DNA of 20,000 bases from an uncultured virus (IMG/VR IMGVR_UViG_3300028571_002018) (lineage: Duplodnaviria; Heunggongvirae; Uroviricota; Caudoviricetes): IMG/VR virus record IMGVR_UViG_3300028571_002018, one strand, 5' to 3'. The number at the start of each line of letters is the position of its first letter. Positions within the stretch are counted from its first letter, which is position 1. The notes under the pieces were generated by a model, which saw only the letters and a program-made list of their open reading frames with translations, did no database searches and had not been told where the DNA came from. Shown here piece after piece: positions 1 to 15,050 of this stretch. The position numbers and the translations under genes are program-made.

Positions 1-2
1 GC

Positions 3-353
3 CCCATCAACCCCAACCGCGTCTTCATCGAGTCGCGCATCGCCTACAAGATGCAGGAGGAAGCCTTCGGCGGTCTGGCGCACAACACGCGCCAGCGCCT
101 GGAGGCCATCGGTGCCAAGCATTCCAAGATCAAGCTGCGGGCTCGCCCGCGCGACACCAACTTCGCGCCCGGCACCGTGCTGCTGCGCGAATGGGGCGAC
201 CGCGAGCACAAGGTGGCGGTCACCGCCGAAGGTCTGTTCGAGTACGAGGGCAGCACCTTCAAGAGCCTGACAGCCGTGGCCCGGCAGATCACCGGCACGC
301 ACTGGTCGGGGCCACTGTTCTTCGGCCTGACCGGCAAGGCAGGTGCGCAATGA
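3..353 (+). CDS. DUF2924 domain-containing protein (5'-truncated by window edge)
   Basis: The frame is open from position 3 (PINPNRVFIESRIAYKMQEEAFGGL). It carries the motifs PGTVLLREW and FKSLTAVARQITGTHWSGPLFFGL and lies directly before a serine recombinase. Confidence 0.85.
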   Translation, partial: PINPNRVFIESRIAYKMQEEAFGGLAHNTRQRLEAIGAKHSKIKLRARPRDTNFAPGTVLLREWGDREHKVAVTAEGLFEYEGSTFKSLTAVARQITGTHWSGPLFFGLTGKAGAQ

Positions 354-1738: not shown

Positions 1739-2109
1739 TGGACGAGTCGATGGAAACCTTCGTGCCCCTGACGTTCCGACGCCGGGGCGTCCAGCGCGTG
1801 GCCACCGACGAGCGTAGCGTCCACGACGTGACCCTGCTCGACGGTGTGGCACGGGCCTTTTACTGGCAGCACCTGCTGGACACCGGCGCGATGCAGAGCG
1901 GGTCGGCCATCGCCCGCGCCGAGAAGCTGCACCACTCGGTGGTCAACGAACTGCTGCGCCTGACCCTGTTGGCCCCCGACATCATTGAGCAGTTCATGGC
2001 GGGCAAGCAGCCACGGCGGCTGACGCTGATGTGGTTTCAGCGAAACCGCCTGATGGTCGACTGGCACGCCCAGCGCCAGCTCATGGCCACCTTCGAGGAG
2101 GACGTATGA
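1738..2109 (+). CDS. Recombinase-associated HTH-like protein, paralog 1 (123 aa)
   Basis: TGATG coupling to the recombinase; ARAFYWQHLLDTG...SAIARAEKLHHSVVNELLRLTLLAPDIIE. Similar to the next gene. Confidence 0.8.
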   Translation: MDESMETFVPLTFRRRGVQRVATDERSVHDVTLLDGVARAFYWQHLLDTGAMQSGSAIARAEKLHHSVVNELLRLTLLAPDIIEQFMAGKQPRRLTLMWFQRNRLMVDWHAQRQLMATFEEDV

Positions 2110-2585
2110 GCAAAAAGCATCGTGGCCACGCCAAGGGCGACCCAGTGACGTATCAGACGCCGCTGCCTGCTGGCGGCGTGCAGATGGAAACATTCCTGCC
2201 CTGGACGCTGGTGCGCCGGGGTTTGAAGAAGCAGGTCATCACGCCGCTGGACGCGCCGCAGGAGTTCCTGGACGAGGCCCGCCGTGAGCGGCAGGTGCGG
2301 GAGATGGCGCAGGACACTCCCTTGATCCGGGCGCTCGGCCTCGCGCACCACTGGCAGCGCCTGCTGGACGAAGGACGGTTCAGTTCAATGACCGAGATCG
2401 CGGCGGCCGAAGGCATCGACCTCGGCCAAGCGAGCAAGATGAGCCGACTGGCACAACTGGCCCCCGACTTGATCGAAGCCATCGCCCTGGGACGCCTCGA
2501 TGTGGGCGTCAGCCAGTTGCTGCGCGGCAAGTTGACGGCGTCCTGGCTGGCGCAACGCGAGGCGCTGGTGGCAGGCTCGCGCTGA
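2106..2585 (+). CDS. Recombinase-associated HTH-like protein, paralog 2 (159 aa)
   Basis: ATGA overlap at 2106; LGLAHHWQRLLDEG...TEIAAAEGIDLGQASKMSRLAQLAPDLIE. Confidence 0.8.
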   Translation: MSKKHRGHAKGDPVTYQTPLPAGGVQMETFLPWTLVRRGLKKQVITPLDAPQEFLDEARRERQVREMAQDTPLIRALGLAHHWQRLLDEGRFSSMTEIAAAEGIDLGQASKMSRLAQLAPDLIEAIALGRLDVGVSQLLRGKLTASWLAQREALVAGSR

Positions 2586-2605
2586 CATCCGTGCCGCAGC
2601 GACAC

Positions 2606-2627
2606 GCCGCCGCAAGGCGGCTTTTTT
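2606..2627 (+). terminator. Rho-independent terminator of the recombinase operon
   Basis: GCCGCC-GCAA-GGCGGC followed by TTTTTT, 20 nt after the stop at 2585. Confidence 0.85.
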
Positions 2628-2850
2628 GTGCCTTTCGCTGTCTCGGTCGCGCGCTCCCGAGCAAGCGAAGAAGCAAACCAATGGCCCGCAAACCCGCGCC
2701 AACACACGACTTCTGGCCTTGAATGCTCAAGAGGGCAGCAGAGAACAGAGAGAGAAAAACGGCGGAGTGCGCGCCTGCAACGGCGACTTCCGGAGGGGCG
2801 TGCTCAAGAGGACAAGGCCGGAAACCGCGCAAACACAGGGGGAACGGGCG

Positions 2851-2881
2851 AAAAAAAACCAACCGAGAACGGTTGGTTTTT
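2851..2881. terminator. Bidirectional terminator-like hairpin
   Basis: AAAAACCAACCG-AGAA-CGGTTGGTTTTT is a perfect 12-bp inverted repeat, with A8 on the left and T5 on the right. Confidence 0.7.
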
Positions 2882-3148
2882 CAAATAGTGGTGGTGGGGC
2901 CGCACCCCCTGTCAAACCCAGCGAACTGGGCTCCTTTTTGCTGCCAATGGCTGCATCGAATAGCTGCGGAAACCTCCAACATAACTGGCAGTCTATCAGA
3001 GGCCGATGGTCGACCCCATCGAGAACTGTGGACGCCAGTTCAAATCCGTATTTCGCACTTGAACCGCCGTCCGCATTTTTTCACCTCTTGGCTTTGGGCT
3101 GAAAACACGCCTTCATGGAGTACCACCAACTCATTCGGAAGGAAACCC

Positions 3149-3361
3149 GTGGAAACCAAACATCTGGGACAAAAACAGCTCGCAGCCCGTTGGAGCATCA
3201 GCGAGGCCAGTCTTGAGCGCTGGCGCAGCGAGGGCATTGGCCCGAAGTTCCTAAAACTCCCCGGCCGCGTCCTCTACCGCCAGGTCGACATCGAAGCCTT
3301 CGAAGAGTCTTGCCTGTCAACATCGACAAAGGCCCTGGCTGGGCCGGTTAGATTCGAATGA
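3149..3361 (+). CDS. Small AlpA/excisionase-like HTH DNA-binding protein (70 aa)
   Basis: GTG at 3149 follows an AAGGA RBS; HLGQKQLAARWSISEASLERWRSEGIGPKFLKLPGRVLYRQVDIEAFE. Confidence 0.8.
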   Translation: METKHLGQKQLAARWSISEASLERWRSEGIGPKFLKLPGRVLYRQVDIEAFEESCLSTSTKALAGPVRFE

Positions 3362-3554
3362 AAATGTTGCGTTTTGTCGGCATTTCTGCACAAGTGCCGA
3401 CGTTCTAGATTGGACCCAAACGAAGCAACTAACCAAAAACACACCCAATTGCACCCAATTGTTGAAATGAAGCGCCTATCCGCGAACTGGGAAAACACCG
3501 GGAACCACTCACCTCCGGTGGCGTATCAAACACTCCGTTGCTTGTCTTGCGGGC

Positions 3555-4400
3555 TCAGATGACCCCGACAGCTTGAAACTTACCGCGCAGTCTTTTCACC
3601 ACATCGACCAGCACAATTGGATCAAGCTGGTTCTTTTTCAAAAATGCCTTCCACTGAGTTTGCTTGGTTACATCTCCTGCAAAGGCGTCTGTAAAGCCGA
3701 CGGGCACCGTGATCGGCATGGGCATTTTGCGGCGCTCAAAAGTTGCTTCAATGGCACGGCGCACTTCGGATGGGTCAAGCGTGGTGTCATCCAGTAGCAC
3801 CCACAAATCGAAGTAATCCTTCATTCGTGTGTTGGCCAGCCCCAGCAGGCACACGGCATGGAATTTCTCGGCGACGACCGTGTATTTCGGATATGCCCGC
3901 AGCTGCGGTGCCGGAAGATCTTCCAACAGTACCGGATAACTGATCGCCTGTGGTGCCGGAGTCACCGCGTCACCGAACCCGATGTCAACTTGCAGAGCAA
4001 TGCGCGCACCATCTAGCTTTGCCTGAATGTCGATCCGCACTCCGCCATAGCCAGCCTCCTTGCGGATGACTGAACCCTTGACTGAATCGGGGTCAAACAC
4101 CACCCCGTCTTCCGATGGGGTCAGGCAAATTTGGCGGAAAGTCTTGACTGCTGTTTCAACGTCGTCCGGGCCAAAGCCCAAAAGATCAGCATCACGGGTG
4201 GGCCGGTGCGCGACGTCATACCAAAGCGTAAACAGCAGCGCCCCTTTGAGCAGAAAATTTGAGGCGTGCTCGGAAACGGACAGTCGGTACAGCAGACGCT
4301 CCAGACCGTAATGCGTGAGCGTCAAATTGAAGTCTTGCTTGGTCGCATCAGCGTGTTGCTTCAAACGCGCCCGGACCGATGCAGCCAGATTTCGACTCAT
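3555..4400 (-). CDS. abiEii: AbiEii/AbiGii-family nucleotidyltransferase toxin (type IV TA)
   Basis: Motifs FLLKGALL, RPTRDADL, VDIGFGD, VVAEKFHA and TRMKDYFDL; ATGA overlap with the upstream antitoxin. Confidence 0.9.
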   Translation of the reverse strand: MSRNLAASVRARLKQHADATKQDFNLTLTHYGLERLLYRLSVSEHASNFLLKGALLFTLWYDVAHRPTRDADLLGFGPDDVETAVKTFRQICLTPSEDGVVFDPDSVKGSVIRKEAGYGGVRIDIQAKLDGARIALQVDIGFGDAVTPAPQAISYPVLLEDLPAPQLRAYPKYTVVAEKFHAVCLLGLANTRMKDYFDLWVLLDDTTLDPSEVRRAIEATFERRKMPMPITVPVGFTDAFAGDVTKQTQWKAFLKKNQLDPIVLVDVVKRLRGKFQAVGVI

Positions 4401-5014
4401 GTTGTCACGCTTTCCAGGTATGGGCGCATGACATTGGCCACGCGGTCAACCGTCGCGAAATGCCAGATTTCGTCCATTGTGAATTTTCGTTGCGCCCAGC
4501 CATCGCGTAGGGCTTCCAGGGCAACGTCCAGCCCAATTTTGTTGCGGTATTTGAAGCAGTCCGCCACTGTCTTGGCAGCGTTAAACACCCGCACGCTCAC
4601 GCCATCAACCTGCAGTTGTTCAATGCCATCTGTGAAAGCCACCCCTGACATGCGCACGGCGCGAATTTTGGGCTGGTCAAGCCTTGGAATGGGTGCCCGA
4701 TGTTCAATGGCAAGCCAGACCTCAAAAGGTGCCTGTGTCCCGATGCCATGCACCCGCAGTGCCGAAAGCAGGCAAACAACTCCGTGCGGTACACGCAGCG
4801 CCACTTCCGCCAGGGACCGGTGCTCGCTGATTGCCTGCCCTGGCAGGCCATAAACTCCTCTGGCAACTCTTTCGAGCTTCCCTGCGGCGACCAGTCGGCT
4901 GAGCACTATGGTTGGCAGTTGCTGCTGCGCTAGGTCCCGAGCACGCAGCAGCGGTCTTGCCCTGGCAAGTTCAAGGACAGCCTGCTCATGCGTCGGATTG
5001 GGCCGAAAATTCAT
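4397..5014 (-). CDS. abiEi: AbiEi-family antitoxin / transcriptional regulator (type IV TA)
   Basis: N-terminal wHTH (GKLERVARGVY), VVCLLSALRVHG and AKTVADCFKYRNKIGLDVALEAL. ATG 5014 is preferred over the track's TTG at 5032, which lies inside the promoter. Confidence 0.88.
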   Translation of the reverse strand: MNFRPNPTHEQAVLELARARPLLRARDLAQQQLPTIVLSRLVAAGKLERVARGVYGLPGQAISEHRSLAEVALRVPHGVVCLLSALRVHGIGTQAPFEVWLAIEHRAPIPRLDQPKIRAVRMSGVAFTDGIEQLQVDGVSVRVFNAAKTVADCFKYRNKIGLDVALEALRDGWAQRKFTMDEIWHFATVDRVANVMRPYLESVTT

Positions 5015-5020
5015 AGTGCA

Positions 5021-5075
5021 AGTATGTTGCAATATCTATGCATTTGTCAATAAATTACACGCTATAGCAACAAAC
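5021..5075 (-). promoter_or_regulatory. Sigma70-like abiE promoter overlapped by an inverted-repeat operator
   Basis: On the minus strand, TTGACA (5050-5045), an 18-nt spacer, then CATACT (5026-5021). The inverted repeat is GTATGTTGCAATA (5022-5034) / TATAGCAACAAAC (5063-5075), an 11/13 match. Confidence 0.7.
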
Positions 5076-5133
5076 ATGCTTACTTGATCATCCATTCTTC
5101 CTGACTTTGTACAAACGTCTGACTTGCGGTGAC

Positions 5134-6078
5134 TCAAGATAGTGAGGCATCGACTTCGTTCAGCAATTCACGTGTCAGTCGGTATATGCCCGGTCGTTTG
5201 CTTTCTCGCGGGCCAGCGACATTCAGGGTCTTGATTTCGTGCTGACGCAGCCATTCGAGAACGCACTTCGCCGATTCCCCGCTAACGCCCTGATCGGCCT
5301 GAACCACAAGGAACGGCTTGTTCAATCGCTCAGCGAAGACCTGGGTGGCAAGTGTCCCCCCATCCATTTCACCGCAATTAACAATCAGCGTGCCATCACT
5401 CTCCTCAACATTACGGCGTGTACGCTGCCGGTAGCCACCGTGATCCAACTCAACCAGCTGATACTTCATGGGAATCTTGCGGTCCTCGGCTTCGCGACCC
5501 TGAGGTGCCCATCCACCGTGCGTGTAACCGTGCTCAATGGCAAAATCCAACGCGCCACGATCCGCCCCAGTCTGGCCGCCTGAAATAATATGCTGGCAAA
5601 AGCGAACTGCCTCGAAGTTTGATCCGCGAAACGTCGGCAAATGCATCAACGCGCCATCAGCAAGGACTTCTGTGCGCTCGGCGAGTCGATGGTTAGGGTC
5701 TTCACAGGGTTTGTCGTAAACGACGCGATAGTCTTCACCAACCTCATCCTTCAGCAAACGCGCCAGGTGGACACCACGCGCATGAAACTCAAGCCAATCC
5801 CAATCACTTGCATCGAAATCTTCAGAGTAAAACCGCGTGCGGTCAAAGGCGACGGCCCAGTCTGCAAACTTTCTCCAAAGAACTTCCGACATTGGACATG
5901 ATTCATCCCAGCCGGTGCCATCGCATATATTGCCGCCGATGCCCAATTCATTAGGTGCATCGACAAGCCACAAGAATGGCGCATTGCCATAGTCCACCAT
6001 CACGGTGAGGACGGGAATAAAGGGCAAATTTTCAGCATTCATGATGGCGGGCTTTACGTTTTGGAGATACCAATTCAC
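5134..6078 (-). CDS. Unknown N-terminal domain fused to cpYpsA SLOG ('putative molybdenum carrier') domain
   Basis: The C-terminal half has IISGGQTGADRGALD, GGWAPQGREAED, YRQRTRRNVEESDGTL, GGTLAT and LNVAGPRESKRPGIY. The start is uncertain (GTG 6078 or ATG 6042). Confidence 0.85.
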   Translation of the reverse strand: MNWYLQNVKPAIMNAENLPFIPVLTVMVDYGNAPFLWLVDAPNELGIGGNICDGTGWDESCPMSEVLWRKFADWAVAFDRTRFYSEDFDASDWDWLEFHARGVHLARLLKDEVGEDYRVVYDKPCEDPNHRLAERTEVLADGALMHLPTFRGSNFEAVRFCQHIISGGQTGADRGALDFAIEHGYTHGGWAPQGREAEDRKIPMKYQLVELDHGGYRQRTRRNVEESDGTLIVNCGEMDGGTLATQVFAERLNKPFLVVQADQGVSGESAKCVLEWLRQHEIKTLNVAGPRESKRPGIYRLTRELLNEVDASLS

Positions 6079-6114
6079 TTTCTAATTGCAGTCTCCTCTT
6101 TGAGCTAGAAGTGA

Positions 6115-6933
6115 TCACCGAATGATCTCGATGATTTCCCATGCATCTTTGTTGTAGATAGGTGACGGGTGGTACTTAAATTTCACAGCAGTCTTACGGC
6201 CAATGTCTTCCCGCAATGCTCGACAAAATGAACGTCCACTTTGCAGATACGCTAGGTAAGCAGGAATCTCCGACTCACTATTTGGAAACACACCGATCGA
6301 CTTCCACGCCAAATACGCTTCCATTAGTTCGGCTTCAAGATTGAGGTCTTCCATTTGGTATCCAACCCCGCCAACAGTGACAAAGCCATGGTACGCATCA
6401 ACCACCACTTGACAAGCCAAAATTCGCCGATCAGGCTCCATCGTATGCGCAGAAAACGGTCGTGTTTCCAGTGCCAATACCTGTTCGAGTTCGACACCAT
6501 GAACTTGGAACTCACACGGAATCGGTGCTGATATGGCCAGCGATTTGATTTGCTTGATGCCCGAGTCAATTGCATCTATGTATTGCTCAGGCTCAAAAAC
6601 GAAGTGCTCAAACGTCGTTACACCATGCTCCCACAGGTCAGGGGTGTCCTCATTGACTGAAAGCGGATCTGGACTTTTCCACGTGATCTCTTTATGAGAG
6701 TGTCCGACTTCAATGCCTTGAAAGATACCTGCGCACCCGGGTTGACCGCATCCGCAGGTGAAAATGTCAAGCTCGCCTGACCACTGACAACTTTTGACAA
6801 GACTGGTTAAGTCCAATGGATGCTCTGGGTGAAACTCGACACCATTGATTTTTAGTCCGTAATCAACAACAGACCCCGAGTACCCTGGTGAATCGACCAT
6901 GACTACTTCTAACTCGATGGTGTCGTACTTCAT
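6115..6933 (-). CDS. Hypothetical protein with CxCGxxGC motif (272 aa)
   Basis: Long ORF co-oriented with its neighbours and closely spaced. IFTCGCGQPGCAG is a putative metal-binding motif. Confidence 0.75.
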   Translation of the reverse strand: MKYDTIELEVVMVDSPGYSGSVVDYGLKINGVEFHPEHPLDLTSLVKSCQWSGELDIFTCGCGQPGCAGIFQGIEVGHSHKEITWKSPDPLSVNEDTPDLWEHGVTTFEHFVFEPEQYIDAIDSGIKQIKSLAISAPIPCEFQVHGVELEQVLALETRPFSAHTMEPDRRILACQVVVDAYHGFVTVGGVGYQMEDLNLEAELMEAYLAWKSIGVFPNSESEIPAYLAYLQSGRSFCRALREDIGRKTAVKFKYHPSPIYNKDAWEIIEIIR

Positions 6934-6952
6934 ATGAGTCCTGAATGATCAA

Positions 6953-7726
6953 TCACATCCGATAACGCATCGGAGCAGATTGCCGCTCTTTAATCATCTT
7001 TGAAATTAGCTGTCCGGTTACATCATCCTTTTTGATGTCCATCGATGAAATCAATAATTCAGCCTCGTCAAATCGTCCTTGCTCCCTAAAAAGATCGACT
7101 AGATCGATGACATACCCCTTGCGAGAAGTTTCCCAGCGGTCAAATAGAACTTTGCTGAGACGCTGCATGTTTTGAAGTTGCACATCCGTTGGATCGAAGG
7201 CCGGATAAGTGAACGGACTGTTTTGTGGACGTCTGTATTCCGGTGGTTTTCGACGAAGGAACTTGTCCCACCAGGTTCTGCGATCTGGATTTGCTACAAC
7301 CCATGCCGTTTTGGTTGCGGCCTCTTCAGCATCCCTGTGCTGACGGTATCTATCACGGTACTCGTGATTGAGATGTCTCCAGTAACCCAGCCTAGCCGCG
7401 ACCTCCATGTCCTCACTGCTCGCCTTTGAGATGCACTCGGGCAAAAGATCGTCGGGCACATGATCCATAAATGGCAGTTCATTGGACTCATCGTCGTCCG
7501 CACTGGGTGCTGCTGGTCTCTCGATTGAGACCATGTCCTTTATCAGGACAAACCGCCCACATTTGCACCGTCGCAAGCCTTCGTCGTTCGGCATGAGTGA
7601 CCACTCGCGCCAACCATCCGTCCAGTATTCAAATGCCGAAAAATTCATCGACACGTATCTTGGGAAGGCATATTGCGCACCACAGCACGGCGCTGCCATG
7701 ATTCGAACACCACGAACGATGGTCAT
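6953..7726 (-). CDS. Hypothetical protein with N-terminal Cys pairs and C-terminal TPR-like helix (DUF2225-like architecture)
   Basis: APCCGA ... RRCKCG is a candidate zinc ribbon and LVDLFREQGRFDEAELL is TPR-like. The family assignment is tentative. Confidence 0.7.
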   Translation of the reverse strand: MTIVRGVRIMAAPCCGAQYAFPRYVSMNFSAFEYWTDGWREWSLMPNDEGLRRCKCGRFVLIKDMVSIERPAAPSADDDESNELPFMDHVPDDLLPECISKASSEDMEVAARLGYWRHLNHEYRDRYRQHRDAEEAATKTAWVVANPDRRTWWDKFLRRKPPEYRRPQNSPFTYPAFDPTDVQLQNMQRLSKVLFDRWETSRKGYVIDLVDLFREQGRFDEAELLISSMDIKKDDVTGQLISKMIKERQSAPMRYRM

Positions 7727-7842
7727 GCTGCATTCTGCTTTCTCAACTCATGCCAGCCGTGAACGGATGTTTGACAACGTGCATTGGTCAAGGTTGACCA
7801 TGCCGTATCGATGTGATGTTCGATCATCCTATTGAGTTGCCG

Positions 7843-8376
7843 TCAGAGCAGTTCTGACTGTCTGGCAAACAGACCATCGAAGGTTGCTTCAAGTCCAGGG
7901 TGAATGCCACGTACACCAGCCACCACGCGAGCCGCCCAATCAAAATAAGCTTTCTTTCGCTCCGCAGTCCAATCCGCCGGTGGCGATGCCAGGATGTCTC
8001 TCAAATTACAAATTTTGTCAGCCAGCTTGACCAATTTGGCTTCGGAGGACATAAGAGGCGCGTGCCGCACCTGTTCCTCTTTTCGAACTGCCTTTTCCAA
8101 GCTTTTGTCATCGGTCACTTCCAGCACGATGCTCGTGACCTTGTCTCCAAAAATATCTGCCAACTCTTTTGCGGTCGTATCGGTGTCTTCAACGGTGTCG
8201 TGCAGCATCGCTGCACAGATCACATCCGGGTTTTCGACACCGCCCTCAACGGCAAGAACGCTGGCCAACGCCAACGGGTGGTTGATGTAGGGCGAGGCAT
8301 CGACATCTTTGCGACGCTGATTTTTGTGCTTCTCGGCTGCAAATTGGGCGGCTTTCACGATTGCTGCAACTGTCAT
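7843..8376 (-). CDS. Mesh1-like HD-domain small alarmone hydrolase ((p)ppGpp-type 3'-pyrophosphohydrolase)
   Basis: Motifs FAAEKHKNQRRK, PYINHP, AAMLHDTVEDT, VLEVTDDK and VKLADKICNLRD. The ATG at 8376 follows an AAAGGGAA RBS-like sequence. Confidence 0.9.
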   Translation of the reverse strand: MTVAAIVKAAQFAAEKHKNQRRKDVDASPYINHPLALASVLAVEGGVENPDVICAAMLHDTVEDTDTTAKELADIFGDKVTSIVLEVTDDKSLEKAVRKEEQVRHAPLMSSEAKLVKLADKICNLRDILASPPADWTAERKKAYFDWAARVVAGVRGIHPGLEATFDGLFARQSELL

Positions 8377-8459
8377 AATTTTCCCTTTCTGTATTTCATC
8401 CCTTGACACGCACCGCCGAAATCACGGTGTTCGATTTTTCATTCCGACATATTTCAGTC

Positions 8460-8641
8460 GGACAGCCCTGCGGATTCGAACCGCAGTCAGTTGAAAGATT
8501 GGCCTCCTTTTCAGCACCGGTTGCCTGGTTTCCCAACCATCCAGCGGCTTCGTAGATAAATGACAAAGGTGCCCAACCATCCCCTTGCCCTCTCAAACGT
8601 AGCGAGCACTTTTCACCATGCTTCCAATACATCAGGCTGTC
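8460..8641 (-). ncRNA. tRNA-like RNA with ~114-nt insertion replacing the anticodon loop
   Basis: Acceptor stem GACAGCC/GGCTGTC, D-arm ATGT-ATTGGAA-GCAT, stem TGAAA/TTTCA and T-arm CTGCGG-TTCGAAT-CCGCAG. No CCA is encoded. Confidence 0.7.
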
Positions 8642-8645
8642 TACT

Positions 8646-9842
8646 TCAACCTTTGACGCAGACGACTTGCTTGAGCGTGTGCAGAATCTCCGTCAGGTCA
8701 GCCTGATTGGCCATGACCTGATCGATGTCTTTGTAGGCACCCGGAATCTCGTCAATCACATCCTTGTCCTTGCGGCAGATCACACCTTGGGTTAGCGCCA
8801 CCATGTCAGCTACCGTAAATTGCTTCTCGGCGGCGGTTCGACTCATCTTGCGTCCGGCACCATGGGCGCTGGAACAAAAGCTCTCAGGGTTACCAAGGCC
8901 GCGCACAATAAAACTGCGCGCACCCATGCTGCCTGGAACAATTCCCAGGTCACCGGCACGGGCACGAATGGCACCCTTGCGGGTCACCCAGACGTTTTCG
9001 CCGTAGTGGTGCTCTTGCGCAACATAGTTGTGGTGGCAGTTCACAGCCTCGGTCGTGACAGTAAAGGGGGGCAGATGGCGCTGTAAGGCAGCCAGCACCA
9101 GTTCTAACATCGACGTGCGGTTCTGCATCGCGTAATCCTGCGCCCAGTGAACCGCTTCCACATAATCTGCAAAGTGTTCAGAGCCTTCAGGGAAATAGGC
9201 CAGATCGCGGTCGGGCAGCTGGATCATCCAGCGTTCCATGTCCTTGCGCGCCAAAGCAATGAAGTAACTGGCAATCGCGTTACCAATGCCACGGCTGCCC
9301 GAATGCAACATAACCCACACCTGGTTAGTCTCATCTAGGCAGACTTCAATGAAGTGGTTTCCACCACCGAGCGTGCCCATCTGGTTGGCCCACTTGGAGA
9401 ACTTACCAAACGCTTTGAGCAGTTCGGGGTGGCGATCAGTCAACGATTTAAGGCCTGGCTCAAACGGTTTGGAGGCATCGACCAGTACCCGCTCATCGCT
9501 ATGCTGGGCACGACCGACCGGCACATCTCGACTGATCTGGTCAAAGACTTTTTGCAGCGCTTTTTCGTCGATTTCATTGGCCGTCAGCGACAAACGTGCC
9601 GCCACCATGCCACAACCCAGGTCAACACCGACCGCAGCTGGAATGATGGCTTTATGGGTGGCAATCACCGACCCGATGGTGGCACCAATACCCAAATGGA
9701 CATCGGGCATCGCCGCCACATGATGGTGAATGAATGGCAAACTTGCAATGTTGGTCAGTTGCTCAATTGAGCGCTCGTCCACATCGTCAGTCCATATCTT
9801 GACCGGAACTCGCTGGTCCGCAATAACTTTTTTTATGGGCAT
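8646..9842 (-). CDS. rtcB: RtcB family RNA 2',3'-cyclic phosphate/5'-OH ligase
   Basis: Motifs MPDVHLGIGATIG, AVGVDLGCGM, GTLGGGNHFIE, MLHSGSRG, NCHHNY, TRKGA, IVPGSMG, SSAHGAGR and DEIPGAYKDI. Confidence 0.97.
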   Translation of the reverse strand: MPIKKVIADQRVPVKIWTDDVDERSIEQLTNIASLPFIHHHVAAMPDVHLGIGATIGSVIATHKAIIPAAVGVDLGCGMVAARLSLTANEIDEKALQKVFDQISRDVPVGRAQHSDERVLVDASKPFEPGLKSLTDRHPELLKAFGKFSKWANQMGTLGGGNHFIEVCLDETNQVWVMLHSGSRGIGNAIASYFIALARKDMERWMIQLPDRDLAYFPEGSEHFADYVEAVHWAQDYAMQNRTSMLELVLAALQRHLPPFTVTTEAVNCHHNYVAQEHHYGENVWVTRKGAIRARAGDLGIVPGSMGARSFIVRGLGNPESFCSSAHGAGRKMSRTAAEKQFTVADMVALTQGVICRKDKDVIDEIPGAYKDIDQVMANQADLTEILHTLKQVVCVKG

Positions 9843-9860
9843 AAATTTTTCCCTCGCTTT

Positions 9861-11105
9861 TCATTGGTCCAGCAATGGCAGCTGTTCTGCCTTCGCTGCT
9901 GTGAATTCGGCAAACGGCTTGTCCCAATCTTCATAGGGAAATGCGTCGCGAACTTTTTTCTGAAAATCGCCACTGGCCAAAGTTTCGTAGGTCACACCCT
10001 TGCGAACGCACTCCAGCTTCATATCTCCAACGACACTCTCTGCAGTTGGAAAAACCTCCTCAAGACGCTTGGTCAAATAGAGCGTCACATGATCGACCGT
10101 TACTTTTCCAGTAACTTGATCAATCAGGTCTTGCGGCGGCTTCTTCTTGAGTGCGGGAGTCAGTCCCTCCACTAATTTGTTCCTCGACGAAGCAATTTCC
10201 TTCGTAAGTCGCTCGACCACAGATTCACGAAACTTTTCAATGTCGGCCCGAATCGCTTCAATCAGCGAATCGACCTCCTTGCGCTTGCTGCGAAGAGTTA
10301 TGGCACCAATGTCACCAATCGGACGGACAAATCGATCACGCAACTTGCGCACTCTGACTTCGACGGCATCAGCATCCTGACCAACTTTGCTTTTTCCATC
10401 CAACAAGTTGAAACTTGTGCGCAATCGCTTTGACGTGGCTTCGTCGCGCAAGGCCAGGATCAAGTCTTGCGGTAATTTGACGGTGTGGCGGGTAATTTGC
10501 AGGCCAGTCAGCCGCAGCTCAATGAACTCGACGTATGCGTTGAATACTGTCAGAGTGCGTGTAAGGTCAAATCGTTGCGGAGGATTCTTCACCATCTCAG
10601 CTTCCACAGCCTTCACATGGGCATCGGTTAACGGCTCCTTACCGATTTGTGGAGGGGTTGGCTTTATCGTTTCTTCGCTCGGACTACTTTTCACGTAGTC
10701 AGGGGCGACCGTGGCGAGCACACCATCAACTTGCTCTCGCGAAAGAATTAAGGCATTTGGACCACGCGGCAGATTTGGGTCTTCCACCATCATGGCAGGA
10801 AGCATGAAAACCATCGCCAGATCATCCACCACCAGAAGACTCATGCGCAAGCCCTGCTCGACTCGCACATCGACATCGTGCTCCAACAACATCGGCATGG
10901 GGTCAGTCTGGCCATACCCCAAACGCAGGGCGTTGGCACTGCCGTCAAGTACGACCCTAACGCGGCTTTTCACGAGACGTTTTCGAACTTCAATGAGCGC
11001 CCCTGCCACCGTGTCAGTTACCCCTGGACCAGCATAGACAGCACGGACTTTTGCCCCACGAATCATCTCTGCCACATCGTCATCTTTGATTACTTTAAGT
11101 TCCAA
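9861..11105 (-). CDS. Hypothetical protein: degenerate PLD-like N-terminal domain + helical C-terminal region (~414 aa)
   Basis: The pattern IRGAKVRAVYAGPG ... RVRVVLD ... GLRMSLLVVDD resembles a PLD fold with the HxK motif replaced. TTG at 11105 has GGAGG 8 nt upstream (the track start is 11120). The gene ends 18 nt before rtcB. Confidence 0.7.
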   Translation of the reverse strand: MELKVIKDDDVAEMIRGAKVRAVYAGPGVTDTVAGALIEVRKRLVKSRVRVVLDGSANALRLGYGQTDPMPMLLEHDVDVRVEQGLRMSLLVVDDLAMVFMLPAMMVEDPNLPRGPNALILSREQVDGVLATVAPDYVKSSPSEETIKPTPPQIGKEPLTDAHVKAVEAEMVKNPPQRFDLTRTLTVFNAYVEFIELRLTGLQITRHTVKLPQDLILALRDEATSKRLRTSFNLLDGKSKVGQDADAVEVRVRKLRDRFVRPIGDIGAITLRSKRKEVDSLIEAIRADIEKFRESVVERLTKEIASSRNKLVEGLTPALKKKPPQDLIDQVTGKVTVDHVTLYLTKRLEEVFPTAESVVGDMKLECVRKGVTYETLASGDFQKKVRDAFPYEDWDKPFAEFTAAKAEQLPLLDQ

Positions 11106-11468
11106 GTTGTGTCCCTCCAAACGCTGATCTAGTAAAAGTCACCTTGGCGTTGAGGGAATCCAGATTTGGACTTTGTGTACCAAAGCGGCCGGAATGATCA
11201 GCCGGCATAGTTGCAACGTCGTTGCAAATAAATGGCAAACTAGTGTCTTCGGCAATTCGAAACCACGAGCGCAATTCGCGATCGTCCATCCAAGCACTGG
11301 CGAGACAGCCTTGATTTGACTTCTGCTGAAGTAGTTTTACACCCATGGCGGAATCCCATTGGTGAGTCCGTTCGGCAAAAACCTAGGCATAGACGAATTT
11401 TTGTTGAAGCGCATCGAAATTCATTTCAGTTTGTTCACCAACTGTAGGACTTTCAACGGGCGTAGACG

Positions 11469-11484
11469 AAAATTCCCCTACTTT
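11469..11484. promoter_or_regulatory. Recurrent motif AAAATTCCCCTACTTT, copy 1
   Basis: Identical 16-mer at 16839-16854 and an 11-bp core at 13951-13961. Confidence 0.5.
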
Positions 11485-11498
11485 ATTGAGATCACACC

Positions 11499-12182
11499 AT
11501 GTGGCCATTTTTTAGTAAACAAAAGCAATCGTCGGGTATCACTGAGGTTCATACTGAATCTCGTACCCGACCGATGAAATTTTCACAACTCCTAGATGGC
11601 ATGGGAGACTTTAGTGATCTGGGCAACCACGACACAGCGATGAAGTTTTGGCTGCCCGAGCCCGCCCTTGAAGCTCTCAAGGAGATAAGCAATTTGAATG
11701 GCGACTCTGTTAGTGAAGCTTTGCGCCAGTTTTTTGCTCATCATTGCTACGGCATCTATGCGTTTCAGATGATGAACGCAAAAATTCCAGGGATTTTCAA
11801 AGACCCTGGACCTATTATGTTTTCAAGGGGTCCCAGCAATGATCCTGTAGGTAAAAAGCGTGTTCACACCTATTGGGTTCCCGAGTTGGGTAAAAACGTT
11901 ATGCCGATCAAGGTGTGGGTGCCTGCCCGAATCCGAAATGATCTTCAATTGCTCGCAACCCACGTTGAGTTGAATTTGTCTCAATATGCCAGAGAGATTG
12001 TCATTTCTCGACTACTCGGGCATGGAACACTTCCTTACCGGCCAGAAATGCTGGCGGCCAATCCATTACCTGCGGCACACGACTGGTGCGAGGGAAAAGA
12101 CGTACCGTTACGCCAATTATGTGATGGTGAAAAAGTTCTCCACGATGAAGTGAAGACAGTTTCCGAATGGGTCGATGCGTGA
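11499..12182 (+). CDS. Putative tandem ribbon-helix-helix DNA-binding protein (227 aa)
   Basis: Two RHH-like units: MKFWLPEPALEALKEISNLNGDSVSEALRQFF and IKVWVPARIRNDLQLLATHVELNLSQYAREIV. Confidence 0.65.
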   Translation: MWPFFSKQKQSSGITEVHTESRTRPMKFSQLLDGMGDFSDLGNHDTAMKFWLPEPALEALKEISNLNGDSVSEALRQFFAHHCYGIYAFQMMNAKIPGIFKDPGPIMFSRGPSNDPVGKKRVHTYWVPELGKNVMPIKVWVPARIRNDLQLLATHVELNLSQYAREIVISRLLGHGTLPYRPEMLAANPLPAAHDWCEGKDVPLRQLCDGEKVLHDEVKTVSEWVDA

Positions 12183-12205
12183 TCTTGATCTGGCATTGAT
12201 AACGT

Positions 12206-13933
12206 TTACAGTTCAAACAAATCTGGTTCAGCGTCGACAACGGGCATTCGTTTTTCGCCCAAGTGCTCAGAATATTTTCTGTTGACTTCTGCTACAGCCT
12301 GCTTGGCATACTTCCGAACTGCCAATTGCACTGGCTCGTTGCAAGGACCTGCAATCTCGTCCAGCGACCAGTGTCGGACACGCCGGACAGCAGAGGCCAA
12401 CGCTATCCTTCGGCCTGTGCTCTTATCGCGCAGGCTAATAAGCAACTCATTGCCCTGACGGCATCGGGAAATGTAACTATCCGCGCAATTGTGCAATGCC
12501 GTCGCCTCGGTAATCAATGCGTTTGGGGAAAGTAGTGGCACAACCATTAGCTTGCCCGATGTATCCCATTGCGCCGATTGAACCCACAAGGCCCAGGCTG
12601 GAGCGTCCTGCGTATCCTCTGCTTGTTCCAATTTTTCGTGAAATTGCACCGCCTCACGCAACCAAGAGCAACCGCGGCGTCGCTGATTCTTGTCTGGGCG
12701 AAAGGCGTACTTTCTAACCAGCCATGCCCAGCGTGGAACGCTATCAAAGAGTTCCTGATATGCCACGGCGTCCCCGCGCCTATCAGAAGCCTCGTTGCAG
12801 ACAATTTGCCAAAACCAACCCGGAACACCTGCACTGGACGTTTCAAATGTGTCGGGCCGACCCGCTGAATCGTGCAACAAACGTATAAAACCACGCGGAG
12901 CCAATGTTGGCCACCGTGATGCATCCAGAGCCTTCAGGCTCAAAATGAGCGATTCCCATGGAGAACGGTTAAGTTGGCTTGGCAGCAAGCGGTTCATTCC
13001 CTTCTCGGCCAATACACGCCAAGCCTTTTGCGACAGACCCGATGCCAGAATGTCATTCATCATCGCTGGAATGGCATCTGCCGTTTGGGAAAGATCGTTA
13101 GGTCTAGCGTACGAAAGCCACGCGGTCAGCGCAACCAACAGTCGTGGGTTTTCTCGATCCATGGTTTGAAACACGCGAAGGTTTCTCCACACCAAGTTCA
13201 AATGCTGTGCCGTGAGGCTTGCCTTACCTGGATAGAGCCGAGCACGCAATGCGGTATCCACGAGATCTGAACCTATGTACAAAGTCAACATGGCGGCCAA
13301 GCGATGCCGAACTGCCGCCATTGCGCCACATCTTTTCAATCGCGCGCCAACCAAATCGATAACGTCATTGAGCGCCGAATCCATCGCGTCAAAGCTCGTA
13401 AAGAGTTGACCTTGATCCTGTTCACCAAGCTTTTTGGTGTAAGAAAACCAGCCTGGCCGGGCTGCGATATAGACAAGCCAAGTCGACTTGCAAAGTGGAT
13501 TGAGTAGATCAACATTGTCCAAGCGCGAATCGACACAGTGCTTCCATGGCGGACTTTGTTTGCTGGCCTTTTCTCGACGTGAAATGGGAGATGGTTCAAC
13601 CCAGACTGCCTGCTCTGACCGATCAATTACATAGTCCAACGCGCCAAAGATTCGAATCCGCAATCGACTGCCAACCGAAGACATAACGCGTATGGGGTCG
13701 GCATATAAGTGTTGCATCACATGTCCCAGCAATGCCGAAGCGCCTAAGGAAACGGTGTCCTCATACACATCCCCAGTCAAAACTGGATGTGCGAGGTGGT
13801 CACTGGTGCATTCCTTAGCCGATCGCATTCTCTGGCGAACTGCCGCATTTATCAACCGCGCCCCAATGCCGTTGTCTATCAAATATTGGATCGGTACAAG
13901 GTGTGCTTCTCTCATGTACGGCAGGTTAGCCAA
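12206..13933 (-). CDS. PcfJ domain-containing protein (~575 aa)
   Basis: The C-terminal VVPLLSPNALITEATALHNCADSY...LISLRD...EIAGPCNEP matches the PcfJ-like E...HNC..SY / G..N pattern. The start codon is uncertain. Confidence 0.8.
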   Translation of the reverse strand: MANLPYMREAHLVPIQYLIDNGIGARLINAAVRQRMRSAKECTSDHLAHPVLTGDVYEDTVSLGASALLGHVMQHLYADPIRVMSSVGSRLRIRIFGALDYVIDRSEQAVWVEPSPISRREKASKQSPPWKHCVDSRLDNVDLLNPLCKSTWLVYIAARPGWFSYTKKLGEQDQGQLFTSFDAMDSALNDVIDLVGARLKRCGAMAAVRHRLAAMLTLYIGSDLVDTALRARLYPGKASLTAQHLNLVWRNLRVFQTMDRENPRLLVALTAWLSYARPNDLSQTADAIPAMMNDILASGLSQKAWRVLAEKGMNRLLPSQLNRSPWESLILSLKALDASRWPTLAPRGFIRLLHDSAGRPDTFETSSAGVPGWFWQIVCNEASDRRGDAVAYQELFDSVPRWAWLVRKYAFRPDKNQRRRGCSWLREAVQFHEKLEQAEDTQDAPAWALWVQSAQWDTSGKLMVVPLLSPNALITEATALHNCADSYISRCRQGNELLISLRDKSTGRRIALASAVRRVRHWSLDEIAGPCNEPVQLAVRKYAKQAVAEVNRKYSEHLGEKRMPVVDAEPDLFEL

Positions 13934-13934
13934 C

Positions 13935-13962
13935 GAGGGGAATCATTACCAAAATTCCCCTC
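13935..13962. promoter_or_regulatory. Inverted repeat containing recurrent motif core (copy 2)
   Basis: GAGGGGAAT-N10-ATTCCCCTC; CCAAAATTCCCCT (13949-13961) also occurs at 16837-16849. Confidence 0.5.
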
Positions 13963-14034
13963 AAATTTCGCAAACCTTCGAACCGCTAAAACCTCCCACA
14001 TCGCCATGAAGTTCAATACACTACCGATGTGCCA

Positions 14035-14103
14035 GGGCCGGTGGTCATAGAGACGTGCAGTGAGTAGCTGCAAGATGTCTGGTTCAAATCCGGGCCTGAC
14101 CCT
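14035..14103 (+). ncRNA. Compact pseudo-tRNA / tRNA-like element (nominal anticodon AGT)
   Basis: Acceptor stem GGGCCGG/CTGACCC (6/7 pairs), D-arm GTC-ATAGA-GAC, anticodon arm TGCAG-TGAGTAG-CTGCA and T-arm GTCTGG-TTCAAAT-CCGGGC. It has G33, no D-loop GG and no CCA. Confidence 0.65.
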
Positions 14104-14174
14104 GGCGCACCGTCGTAGAAGGTGATGTTGACGGCTGACCGATAGATGATCTGGCTATTTGATGTCGTTTCGCG

Positions 14175-15050
14175 TTAACCGATATACACCCGCACACAAG
14201 CCCGCATCGTGTTGTCGTGCAAGTCTAGTACCGGTCGAATCCCATGCATATCATCCCGCTGATAACCACCAGCCAGATTCCATGCAACCGGGACTTGCAT
14301 CGCTTTACATTCTTGAAACACCAGTTCGTCGCGCCGAAGCATTTGCTCCGTTGTCATGACACCCCCCAGCGGATCATTGATATGGGGATCGGCACCCGCC
14401 TGGTAGAGGATGAGATCACATCCCGACATGCCTTTAAGCACACTGGGCAAATGCCTGAAAAGTTCCTCCGACTTTTCAACCGTGGTGTAGGGCTGCTCCC
14501 CAAACGTGTAGTGTTGCAGCCAATTTCCCAGCTCAAGCAATTCAATGAGCGAAGCAGTCCCATCCCCGAAGTGCACATCGCAGTCCACAATGCCCACCCG
14601 ATCCACAAGGCCCGCACTTTTCAAGGCTCGTGCTGCGATGACCAAACCATTAAAAGTACAGAATCCTGCACCCTTTGCATAGCGAGCATGGTGGAACCCT
14701 GCGACAGGTGCCACAGCTACTTTGCCATTGGCAACAGCCTCGCGTCCGGCATCAATCATTGCACCGACGGTGTACCTGCAGGTTTCAGCTATCGCCACAT
14801 CTTTGTTCATAAAGCCATTGGCTTGCTGGCCTGAGAAAATCTTCCTCACGTAGTCCATCGAGTGGGCCAGGCACAGCACTTCGTCGTCGGCTGGACAAAC
14901 GTCGTGTACCGAGATTGGTGCGCCCATGGCCAGCCAAGAGTGCACAACTGGTTTGGGCTTTGCTGCGCTGGGCGAAAATCCACCGCTGTCTGCGACCATC
15001 TGATCACAGTAGAAGACCGGCAGCGTTGACAGCGTTTCGTTAGTTGTCAT
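14175..15050 (-). CDS. Zn-dependent histone deacetylase family protein (HDAC/AcuC/AphA)
   Basis: Motifs GFHHA, GFCTFN, VDCDVHFGDGT, YQAGADPHINDPLG and LAGGY. The ATG at 15050 overlaps the end of the Sir2 gene. Confidence 0.92.
   Translation of the reverse strand: MTTNETLSTLPVFYCDQMVADSGGFSPSAAKPKPVVHSWLAMGAPISVHDVCPADDEVLCLAHSMDYVRKIFSGQQANGFMNKDVAIAETCRYTVGAMIDAGREAVANGKVAVAPVAGFHHARYAKGAGFCTFNGLVIAARALKSAGLVDRVGIVDCDVHFGDGTASLIELLELGNWLQHYTFGEQPYTTVEKSEELFRHLPSVLKGMSGCDLILYQAGADPHINDPLGGVMTTEQMLRRDELVFQECKAMQVPVAWNLAGGYQRDDMHGIRPVLDLHDNTMRACVRVYIG

Follow-up and report, generated by a model that had tools for sequence, protein, structure and literature searches.

In animals and archaea, tRNA-intron circles are described as products of a tRNA-shaped precursor whose inner piece is joined head to tail by an RtcB-type ligase (PMC4536317; PMC12558985). 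In the account of bacterial Y RNAs cited here, the 5' and 3' ends of Yrn1 (D. radiodurans) close the structure and a stem-loop between the D-like and T arms occupies the position of an anticodon arm; in YrlA the T arm comes first, followed by an acceptor-like hairpin and then the D arm, and its Ro-binding terminal stem bears GNCGAAN0-1G (PMC4201824). Ribozyme-flanked circular RNAs such as retrozymes and viroid-like RNAs are reported to start from a DNA-encoded precursor, whose core ends suit RtcB and are sealed into a rod-like circle (PMC7229834). An association of rtcB with spare tRNA arrays has been published for the L-arrays of cyanobacteria (PMC8421152). For the natural substrates of bacterial RtcB, damaged tRNA, tmRNA and rRNA are among the proposals in the reports cited (PMC7790460; PMC9650030; PMC11090510).

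Here we analyzed a 20,000-nt stretch of DNA filed as an uncultured virus (IMG/VR IMGVR_UViG_3300028571_002018; hereafter the window), in which a 182-nt tRNA-like RNA element lies directly behind an rtcB gene. To our knowledge, no dedicated, co-encoded RtcB substrate has been known so far. The features used below are as follows (nt numbers count along the element).

8646..9842, minus strand: rtcB, 398 aa, a 3'-phosphate/5'-OH RNA ligase (Pfam PF01139, E=6.1e-131; PHROG match to tRNA splicing ligase, 2.1e-145)
8460..8641, minus strand: the whole 182-nt tRNA-like RNA element (nt 1 = 8641, nt 182 = 8460)
8632..8641, minus strand: 5' flank, nt 1-10, with the acceptor 5' strand (7 nt) and the 3-nt linker UGA; this segment is not part of the joined piece, the boundary 8632/8631 being taken from an RNA-library contig (X18 record 11)
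8489..8631, minus strand: 143-nt core, nt 11-153, with 8489 joined to 8631 in an RNA-library contig
8584..8588, minus strand: internal five bases, nt 54-58, pairing with nt 152-153 and 11-13 in the minimum free energy (MFE) fold
8572..8582, minus strand: first copy of an 11-nt direct repeat, in the 5' strand of the long helix, pairing with nt 140-145
8513..8549, minus strand: GAAA-loop hairpin, nt 93-129
8532..8542, minus strand: second copy of the 11-nt direct repeat, within the GAAA hairpin
8509-8503, minus strand: AAGGAGG, element positions 133-139
8460..8488, minus strand: 3' flank, nt 154-182, with the 2-nt linker GA, the T arm, the acceptor 3' strand and one C (from sequence and pairs)
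8377..8459, minus strand: 83-nt spacer that separates the element from the HD gene; it holds two small hairpins and the ribosome-binding site of the HD gene
7843..8376, minus strand: HD_4/SpoT-like small hydrolase gene (Pfam HD_4, 3.5e-18; TIGR00691, 3.3e-23)
6953..7726, minus strand: 257-aa protein (78.6% identity in L084, the metagenome locus used for comparison; family of 416 clusters, with relatives at 77-97%, P0005-P0017)

A preliminary description of the locus had placed the element on the strand of rtcB, 4 nt past its stop codon, and bases 8645-8642 indeed separate the rtcB ORF from the element. The perfect acceptor stem was recovered in the pair listing (7/7 Watson-Crick, nt 1-7 with 175-181), and the sequence contains U8, A14, GG in the D loop and TTCGAAT as the T loop, as well as both copies of the direct repeat and AAGGAGG at the positions first given. 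Other parts of that cloverleaf need correction. The D stem has three Watson-Crick pairs and one G-U pair, and two bases rather than one separate it from the stem that had been read as an anticodon stem; all five pairs of the latter can form (5/5), but its ensemble probability is 0.0. In the T arm, the canonical loop TTCGAAT sits on a 6-bp stem (6/6 pairs) rather than a 5-bp stem, so that the acceptor and T stack comes to 13 bp and not 12. Chance resemblance to a tRNA was ruled out by scanning 160 RtcB loci and the window, on both strands, for a T arm with a 7-bp acceptor 100-450 nt upstream: 27 matches were found, and only one of the 27, the element itself (8460-8641), has the D arm too. A 9-nt inverted repeat (8699-8707 and 8631-8639) was also seen; our estimate of the chance expectation for the stretch is about 0.4 such repeats.

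The comparison with L084 covers two diverged lineages only, window/L085 and L084. Between the window and L084, rtcB differs at 155 of 1197 sites, 129 of them at codon position 3, whereas the element differs at 5 of 182 (97.3% identical; Fisher p=2e-18 when set beside rtcB third positions and p=9e-6 when set beside the full CDS). The flanks and arms are unchanged (68/68 identical, 0/68 changed) and the 114-nt insert is 109/114 identical (95.6%). For the flanking genes, identity is 89.7% over the last 300 nt of rtcB and 78.6% at the HD start. The spacer at 8377-8459 is 76/83 identical with one 1-nt deletion, and the element compared with this adjacent spacer (5/182 against 7/83 changes) gives a borderline p=0.054. 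All five substitutions in the element fall at bases unpaired in the MFE fold (53/143 unpaired; hypergeometric p=0.006). The overlapping 78-aa ORF (8396-8632, no Pfam match) is not the source of the constraint, because 5/5 changes are nonsynonymous in it and a 1-nt deletion shifts its frame in L084; a coding circle, with a junction-made TTG 13 nt after AAGGAGG opening a 60-codon frame, was rejected in the same way. Taken at the level of sequence, these comparisons demonstrate strong purifying selection on the RNA rather than on a protein, and they bear out the view that a structured RNA on a tRNA-like scaffold is real and selected here. No covariation was found in any stem between the window and L084, as expected from only five substitutions, none in a stem, in two lineages.

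The element is present in RNA-library contigs of two runs, X16 and X18, and 14 DNA runs contain the region. The contig X16 record 9 (202 nt, depth 5.5, one other letter) runs unbroken over 8504-8705, and since it spans from 8705 in rtcB to 8504 in the element, the co-transcription with rtcB proposed earlier is probable. X18 record 11 is a metatranscriptome contig of 173 nt (depth 3.1, 0 other letters), in which letters 1-23 match 8489-8511 and letters 24-166 match 8489-8631, both on the minus strand; read through, it runs from 8511 to 8489, continues from 8631 to 8489 and ends with seven more letters. A length of 173 equals 143 + 30, which is the length printed for a closed cycle of 143 words at k=31, the value we take the assembler of the X16 and X18 contigs to have used. 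This joint, seen in one contig of one run, with one side of 23 letters that is below the 31-letter mapping rule and unlisted among joints, and in a library type where contigs carry neither strand nor ends and DNA can occur, hints that the inner 143 nt is excised and joined into a circular RNA. From runs X15 and X20 came only fragments of rtcB genes from other organisms, mostly <95% alike, and for X16 and X18 the evidence is drawn solely from the covered parts of the stretch. The earlier suggestion of an RtcB substrate thus survives in part: the head-to-tail form fits an RtcB-type ligation product, but a protein-spliced tRNA does not fit.

The predicted fold places the boundaries of the core at structural borders. 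The MFE structure is a four-way junction and the core forms two helical domains of it, ending exactly at the junction boundaries (linker UGA/domain 1 and domain 2/linker GA). In the linear ensemble the pair probability is about 0.99 for the acceptor and T arms, with 0.93-0.99 over the 3' flank; within the core, the GAAA-loop hairpin is the best-supported helix (0.97-1.0). Because nt 54-58 pair with both ends of the core, the two ends would meet as a nick in a 5-bp helix. These five bases are invariant in L084, and their pair probability rises from 0.11-0.41 for the linear precursor to 0.97-1.0 for the circle. The 143-nt circular fold is predicted to be rod-shaped (-43.5 kcal/mol, 6/300 shuffles as good), with fold statistics that are weak throughout (z = -1.79, -0.95 and -2.36 for the whole element, the insert and the circle, respectively).

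The element is not a tRNA. ARAGORN with default settings reports 0 genes and no tmRNA on it. With introns enabled, the tRNA resemblance noted at first is picked up, but only at 95% of threshold and as an unconvincing tRNA-Ala model. No register or intron position allows a 7-nt anticodon loop with U33. The D arm fits in sequence (A14, G18 G19, A21) and enforcing it costs only 0.9 kcal/mol, its ensemble probability being about 0.1. The element has no Rfam match, either at the gathering score or at E<=10, and no family of known ribozymes appears at E<=10 within 8300-8800. Other classes were considered and rejected. Group I introns have a 5' exon ending in U and end in G themselves, and the smallest known are about 200 nt; here A precedes the 5' cut, the piece ends in U and measures 143 nt, and there is no Rfam match. 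For a tmRNA, pair 3:70 is C-G and not G-U. A Y RNA fails on gene context and on arm order, which is D then T with the ends forming the acceptor stem; no TROVE/Ro protein occurs among the 18 long ORFs scanned, in agreement with the absence of Ro from the window reported before. The motif nearest to GNCGAAN0-1G in the element reads U where the first G would stand, and A92 within it is variable in L084 and X16. A host tRNA copy or integration-site remnant was also set aside, as the nearest genome (G001) has no match to the T arm and acceptor with <=3 mismatches.

The reading we prefer, although we give it slightly less than even weight, is that the minihelix serves as a processing handle and that the core is cut out and then closed into a rod-shaped circular RNA, with the adjacent RtcB as the probable ligase. 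The element would be a functional RNA gene, cargo of a mobile island directly downstream of rtcB and probably transcribed with it. Its ends would fold into a tRNA-like acceptor/T-arm minihelix acting as the handle, and each of the two strands leaving the minihelix would be cut where linker and helix meet, one behind nt 10 and the other behind nt 153. The new ends would then lie side by side on the internal 5-nt splint (nt 54-58) and be sealed to give a rod-shaped, exonuclease-resistant circular RNA, of which we infer both the circularity and the end chemistry; the likely ligase would be the RtcB encoded 4 nt upstream. As a guess at its role, such a stable RNA might bind or distract a host factor aimed at tRNA or structured RNA, which would be in keeping with the surrounding repair genes for RtcB and the SpoT-like hydrolase. 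More tentatively, a bacterial mobile element may encode a dedicated RtcB substrate in this way, with two minihelix-directed cuts and a 143-nt core sealed by RtcB. No candidate was found for the nuclease that would excise the core. The 257-aa protein adjoins the element in L084 and also occurs without it in L088/L089, so the link between the two is loose; its structural model (pLDDT 79) has a beta N-terminus and a TPR-like helical part, matches TPR-like proteins only (E>0.2) and shows no nuclease fold. The 419-aa protein upstream of rtcB was rejected as a partner, since it is not kept in L084; a PLD-like atlas row at 0.92 is the single lead to its nature, and it has no PDB relative.

The element is cargo on a mobile island that also carries AbiE, SIR2 and the BREX kinase PglW. 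These defence genes would suit a linear tRNA-mimic decoy or sensor, in which the RNA acts in one piece, its tRNA-like top half draws a tRNA-directed nuclease or modifying toxin from the host or a competing element, and the joint is a by-product of re-sealing by RtcB. The neighbors are of tRNA-repair type (RtcB and the SpoT-like hydrolase), the tRNA-like arms are the most conserved part (68/68), and relatives of this rtcB sit in spare-tRNA arrays, for which a sponge role is among the proposals of the cited report (PMC8421152). We nevertheless consider a decoy unlikely: the element is without the anticodon loop that is the target of most known tRNA nucleases, and the insert is conserved too (109/114). 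On either strand the cut coincides precisely with a helix boundary, and the ends come to lie on a built-in splint, a layout that looks designed and not accidental.

The position of the element, 4 nt past the end of rtcB and 83 nt ahead of the HD gene, would also be that of a cis-acting processing or stability element of an rtcB-HD transcript, serving as punctuation for RNase P or 3' processing or as a stabilizer uncoupling rtcB from the HD gene, with no product acting in trans. No sigma-70-like promoter or terminator was found on the element strand at 7700-11400, one RNA-library contig is continuous from rtcB into the element, and a Y RNA with a 7-bp acceptor-like stem is described as an RNase P substrate (PMC4201824). 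Punctuation, however, would need the minihelix only, and yet the 114-nt insert is conserved at 95.6%. In L084 the element is kept though the HD gene is deleted down to 30 codons, and in another locus (L003) the HD gene directly follows rtcB, 19 nt apart, without the element, an arrangement that marks it as an inserted unit. Nor would this reading account for the head-to-tail contig, and we regard a purely cis-acting element as improbable.

The element is rare: none was found in 160 other rtcB loci or about 770 related genomes. The 160 loci (80 genome and 80 viral) gave 0/160; blastn against the 80 genome rtcB loci gave nothing at E<=1e-3, with 13-16-nt chance matches only at E<=10. There was no element match in the plasmid and phage collections, and exact-pattern searches of viral sequences returned 0, 0 and 1 match, the last a chance match inside a phage gene (L086). 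The 371 family genomes held no real match (one 28-nt match at E=0.009) and the 401 order genomes 0 matches. A model of the element (R1) run on 90 sources retrieved only the three known copies, the next best at 19 bits being L033 2044-2171, which overlaps an ARAGORN tRNA-Gly at 2100-2173. Lack of conservation at homologous loci had been named as a point against a functional RNA, and to the letter the 0/160 count is such a lack. The window/L085 and L084 copies are conserved all the same, and the absence is outweighed by the strong purifying selection between these two carrier lineages.

This rarity in the 371 family and 401 order genomes and the near-threshold call of ARAGORN in intron mode are what a decayed tRNA gene might show, that is, a functionless leftover of a former tRNA array broken by an insertion, with copies alike through recent transfer. 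Genes of the same rtcB lineage do lie among tRNA genes at 14/80 genome loci and 20/80 viral loci, with arrays of 16 tRNAs in L033 and up to 18 in L041. Recent transfer, however, would leave a uniform block, and here the flanks have diverged (89.7% and 78.6%) while the element is 97.3% identical with its changes at unpaired bases; RNA-library contigs in two runs also contain it. Judged by this pattern of divergence the element is not a relic, and a decayed tRNA gene seems to us quite improbable.

An intron-containing tRNA, cut by a protein endonuclease and rejoined by RtcB into a working tRNA, would account for the adjoining rtcB and for an inner piece joined head to tail like the excised tRNA introns described in archaea and animals (PMC4536317; PMC12558985), but it is very improbable given that the D arm and the entire anticodon region go with the joined piece, that the flanks sum to 39 nt, that a U33 loop is impossible with any intron position, that the central 4-bp helix of a bulge-helix-bulge (BHB) cannot form at the cut sites, and that no EndA-like family occurs among the ORFs scanned. 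The flanks outside the joined piece (10 + 29 nt) hold the minihelix of acceptor and T arm only, and since the D arm leaves with the joined piece, a spliced tRNA cannot result. In the BHB inspection, cuts at 10/11 and 153/154 were set at the position that the cut has within the bulge of this motif, and the central helix was unpaired (nt 12-15 with 155-158, or shifted by 1). Pfam and NCBIfam scans of 18 window ORFs found no splicing endonuclease of the EndA type. The protein-spliced tRNA of the preliminary description is therefore abandoned, there being no BHB, no anticodon loop and a joined piece (nt 11-153) that takes everything from the D arm down to the variable region.

In the literature we found no account of a bacterial tRNA-like circular-RNA precursor beside rtcB, and one may exist. 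If the preferred reading is true, a conserved RNA 4 nt behind rtcB would offer a defined, testable RtcB substrate and an uncommon instance of a circular-RNA gene in bacteria, and would point to a nuclease whose cuts lie next to the tRNA top half. On the more tentative reading, it would be the first gene-encoded, protein-ligated circular RNA system in bacteria and a natural counterpart of the tRNA-intron circles of animals and archaea and of engineered circular-RNA cassettes, with a new cutting rule. The repair and counter-defence cargo of mobile elements would also gain an RNA component, and compact natural designs for circular RNA production in bacteria may be suggested by it. If the circle is an assembly artefact, there is still a new, rare and selected family of tRNA-like non-coding RNA without an Rfam match.

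Among the known systems near to it, tricRNAs and the archaeal circular tRNA and rRNA-spacer introns share with the proposed pathway a precursor shaped like a tRNA, the head-to-tail joining of an inner piece and a ligase of the RtcB type. In those systems EndA/TSEN cuts at a BHB in the anticodon arm and the exons yield a real tRNA; here the cuts would fall next to the acceptor/T minihelix and the D arm would go with the circle, the host is bacterial and no splicing endonuclease is seen. Like YrlA and Yrn1 in rsr-rtcBA loci, it is a non-coding RNA beside rtcB that mimics the T and D arms of tRNA, but the window has no Ro60/Rsr gene and the element has neither GNCGAAN0-1G nor an Rfam match. We know of no circular form described for bacterial Y RNAs. 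With tmRNA it shares an acceptor stem and T arm made from the two ends of the RNA and a large insertion in place of the anticodon arm, and it differs in having no tag reading frame, no pseudoknot series and half the size. Unlike retrozymes and viroid-like RNAs, it has no hammerhead, twister or HDV-like match, and its 10- and 29-nt flanks form a tRNA-like minihelix. The engineered Tornado design is a ribozyme-flanked circular RNA of the same kind as these. Finally, spare tRNA arrays and phage tRNA clusters share the rtcB lineage with the element (L033, L041 and 20/80 viral loci), but such arrays hold decodable tRNAs, whereas at this locus one non-decoding tRNA-like RNA stands alone, and its 114-nt insert is conserved.

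A tRNA-like element of 182 nt, with nt 1 at 8641 and nt 182 at 8460, starts four bases past the stop of rtcB.

8646-9842, minus strand: rtcB ORF (Pfam RtcB, E = 6.1e-131)
8641-8460, minus strand: tRNA-like element (182 nt)

The acceptor, T-arm and D-arm-like sequences claimed at this place in the preliminary description are present. Bases 1-7 are fully paired with 175-181 in a perfect 7-bp acceptor, a 6-bp T hairpin with the loop TTCGAAT lies just inside the acceptor 3' strand, and a 4-bp D-arm-like hairpin lies inside the 5' strand, its 7-nt loop carrying A14 and GG at the tRNA D-loop places. The 11-nt direct repeat (8582-8572 and 8542-8532) and AAGGAGG (8509-8503) reported in the 114-nt insert (8610-8497) were also found. 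On both strands of 160 rtcB loci and of the window, we looked for T arms that have a 7-bp acceptor partner lying 100-450 nt upstream. Of the 27 cases obtained, one has a D arm as well, and this is the element itself; the observation thus holds and is not due to chance.

The element is not a tRNA. With default settings, ARAGORN reported neither a tRNA nor a tmRNA for the window, and its intron mode at the default threshold called a false tRNA within rtcB. Of the tRNA-finder check suggested in the preliminary description, a positive result came only from intron mode with the threshold lowered to 95%, where the element region was modelled, implausibly, as a tRNA-Ala that has a long extra arm and contains an intron of 83 nt. 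Rfam, also suggested there, gave no match at gathering score and, across 8300-8800, no relevant hit at E ≤ 10. Between the D stem and the anticodon stem drawn previously lie two bases. Thermodynamic ensemble probabilities are ~0.99 for the acceptor and the T arm (a stem of six pairs), ~0.1 for the D stem and 0.0 for that anticodon stem. Position 33 is never U, whichever part of the insert is removed.

A scan of metagenome contigs with a 24-base stretch from the D-arm region returned two records, L085, which is 99% identical to the window across 1.6 kb, and L084, a diverged relative.

Differences between the window and L084
rtcB: 155 of 1197 nt (20, 6 and 129 at codon positions 1, 2 and 3)
element: 5 of 182 nt
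two flanks (arms): 0 of 68 nt
insert: 5 of 114 nt
downstream spacer: 7 of 83 nt and a 1-nt deletion
HD gene, first 56 nt: 78.6% identical

The element is far more conserved than the third codon positions of rtcB (Fisher p = 2e-18) and than the whole rtcB coding sequence (p = 9e-6), and its contrast with the adjacent spacer reaches only p = 0.054. In the minimum-energy fold, 53 of the 143 bases of the core (nt 11-153) are unpaired, and the five changes are all found among these (p = 0.006). Judged from this comparison, the element is under selection as an RNA. Conservation, whose absence the preliminary description had set as a refutation, is strong between the window and L084; no stem base has changed, and therefore there is no covariation evidence for or against. 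A 78-codon ORF overlapping the element was rejected as the conserved unit, since 5/5 changes are nonsynonymous in it and the L084 deletion shifts its frame.

The element is rare. It is absent from the 80 closest rtcB loci of species genomes (blastn and a covariance model built from three copies), from 80 viral rtcB loci, from plasmid and phage collections, from 401 genomes of the order and from 371 genomes of the family, the last giving one 28-nt match (E = 0.009). Window 1-3075 alone, which also carries an HTH gene, is shared with the nearest genome (G001, at 95%) and with the nearest virus record (G002, at 99%). On these alignments, window 3076-20000 is a variable island, and the element sits in mosaic mobile DNA.

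Features of the shared segment and the island
191-1738: large serine recombinase (shared segment)
3555-4400: AbiEii, AbiE toxin-antitoxin
4397-5032: AbiEi, AbiE toxin-antitoxin
5134-6078: cpYpsA SLOG protein
6953-7726, minus strand: 257-aa protein, paired cysteines near the N-terminus
9861-11120, minus strand: 419-aa protein, 18 nt upstream of rtcB
12206-13933: PcfJ-like protein
14175-15056: deacetylase-like gene
15040-15912: SIR2
17287-19998: BREX kinase PglW, running past the window end

The gene neighbours of rtcB are shuffled from locus to locus. At one of them (L003) the same HD gene lies 19 nt past rtcB with the element absent between, and the element is therefore regarded as a unit that was inserted. 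The HD (SpoT-like hydrolase) gene of L084 is cut to its first 30 codons (L084:2711-2800 versus window 7741-8321), and both the element and the gene for the 257-aa protein are retained despite this deletion. At least one tRNA occurs within the flanks taken at 14 of 80 genome and 20 of 80 viral rtcB loci. rtcB of this lineage is often found near tRNA genes, within or directly past arrays of up to 18 of them (L033:446-2345 with 16; L041:987-4726 with 18; L002:2292-2754; L001:6-167), and viral loci L122, L124, L125, L159 and L164-L166 likewise have tRNA arrays. In L001, L002 and L033 the last tRNA before rtcB is tRNA-His(GTG), which ends ~250-850 nt upstream. Another gene follows rtcB at L002:4200-4560 and L072:2400-2760; the start of its product appears to resemble RlaP-type nucleotidyltransferases, which accompany RNA ligases (the name as in the title of PMC12776372). 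The association of rtcB with tRNA arrays is already known for cyanobacterial arrays, as described in PMC8421152.

The region is present in 14 DNA metagenome runs (lake water, sludge and wastewater), and small parts of it in 6 RNA runs. RNA runs X15, X16, X18 and X20 were compared with the region; X17 and X19 are equal in size to X16 and X18 and may be identical data. X15 and X20 yielded nothing but pieces of other organisms' rtcB. Record 9 of X16 (202 nt, depth 5.5, one other letter) spans 8504-8705 and passes unbroken from rtcB through the stop into the element, its sole difference being A92U, as in L084. Record 11 of X18 (173 nt, depth 3.1, no other letters) consists of two minus-strand pieces.

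letters 1-23: 8489-8511
letters 24-166: 8489-8631
last 7 letters: unplaced

Its order is 8511 to 8489, 8631 to 8489 and the seven letters, thus 8631 comes after 8489. The length of 173 equals 143 + 30, which is the printed length for a closed cycle of 143 words from a de Bruijn assembler with 31-letter words, presumably the word length used here. A tandem duplication within a longer molecule should add flank words and break the cycle; the record is therefore read as circular or concatemeric, and it probably represents such a form of element nt 11-153 (8631-8489). The joint comes from one contig in one run and has 23 letters on one side, below the 31-letter rule of the tool, which does not list it as a joint; contigs carry no strand or end information, and RNA libraries may hold DNA.

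The minimum-energy fold of the 182-nt RNA is a four-way junction (-65.6 kcal/mol).

nt 1-7 with 175-181: acceptor stem
nt 8-10: three free bases
nt 11-56: domain 1
nt 57-153: domain 2
nt 154-155: two free bases
nt 156-174: T arm

The contig joint links nt 153 to nt 11, precisely where domain 2 ends and domain 1 begins. The uninterrupted stretch nt 54-58 pairs with both of these ends, which are thereby brought together as a nick within a helix of 5 bp. For the closed circle the predicted fold is rod-shaped with a loop at either end (-43.5 kcal/mol, z = -2.36, matched by 6 of 300 shuffles). The junction pairs have probabilities of 0.97-1.0 in the circle versus 0.11-0.41 in the linear precursor; because of these low linear values, and because the D-arm fold is only 0.9 kcal/mol worse than the minimum-energy fold, the inner structure is tentative. 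At the cuts no bulge-helix-bulge motif can be drawn, and ribozyme families gave no Rfam match (E ≤ 10, 8300-8800).

Two further observations concern these ends. A 9-nt perfect inverted repeat links the end of rtcB (8699-8707) and the acceptor 5' strand (8631-8639), and the rtcB copy could pair with that strand exactly up to nt 11 as a rival to the acceptor stem; the number of repeats of this kind expected by chance in the stretch is estimated at about 0.4. The circle joint 8489-8631 would create a TTG 13 nt past AAGGAGG, opening a 60-codon frame across the junction, and 5/5 nonsynonymous substitutions speak against coding.

We concluded that the element is a real, selected and rare tRNA-like RNA gene coupled to rtcB; one contig and ends that match the fold suggest its conversion to a circular RNA. 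We propose that the tRNA-like minihelix would act as a handle, that both strands leaving it would be cut at the linker/helix boundary by a putative nuclease, and that RtcB, whose gene ends 4 nt upstream, would join the presumably ligatable ends of the nicked rod to give a circle. Neither neighbouring protein provided a nuclease candidate. The 419-aa protein has no family in Pfam, NCBIfam, PHROGs or PADLOC, gives a weak PLD-like lead (PLD-type phosphodiesterase clusters from rank 13 only, score 0.92, in a language-model search), and is missing upstream of rtcB in L084. The 257-aa protein is a member of an uncharacterised family, which has at least 416 clusters and lacks a Pfam model, and also occurs without the element on viral or mobile contigs (L088 and L089), beside ParB-methylase, DUF6362, DUF3987 and RepB; its predicted structure has a beta N-terminus and TPR-like helices (pLDDT 79), with TPR-like matches only (E > 0.2). 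The loops vary, the stems are constant and tRNA-repair-type neighbours lie on a defence/counter-defence island; our guess for the role of the circle is therefore a stable RNA that might bind or distract a factor targeting tRNA or structured RNA.

A linear decoy with the circle as a by-product of repair is unlikely, and a cis processing element is less likely still. A decayed tRNA is improbable. The T arm and acceptor are not copies of any tRNA in the nearest genome. The protein-spliced tRNA of the preliminary description is the least credible reading, with no bulge-helix-bulge, no resulting tRNA and no splicing endonuclease among the ORFs scanned.

A literature search of main texts found no such element described, and the element does not belong to tmRNA, group I introns or ribozyme-flanked circles. 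Bacterial Y RNAs (PMC4201824) resemble it as a tRNA mimic beside rtcB, and the element differs from them in Ro60, arm order and motif. Unlike the tRNA-intron circles of animals and archaea, it has no bulge-helix-bulge, no resulting tRNA and no endonuclease among the ORFs scanned; these circles are nevertheless the closest in working, sharing a tRNA-shaped precursor, a head-to-tail inner piece and RtcB, as set out in PMC4536317 and PMC12558985.
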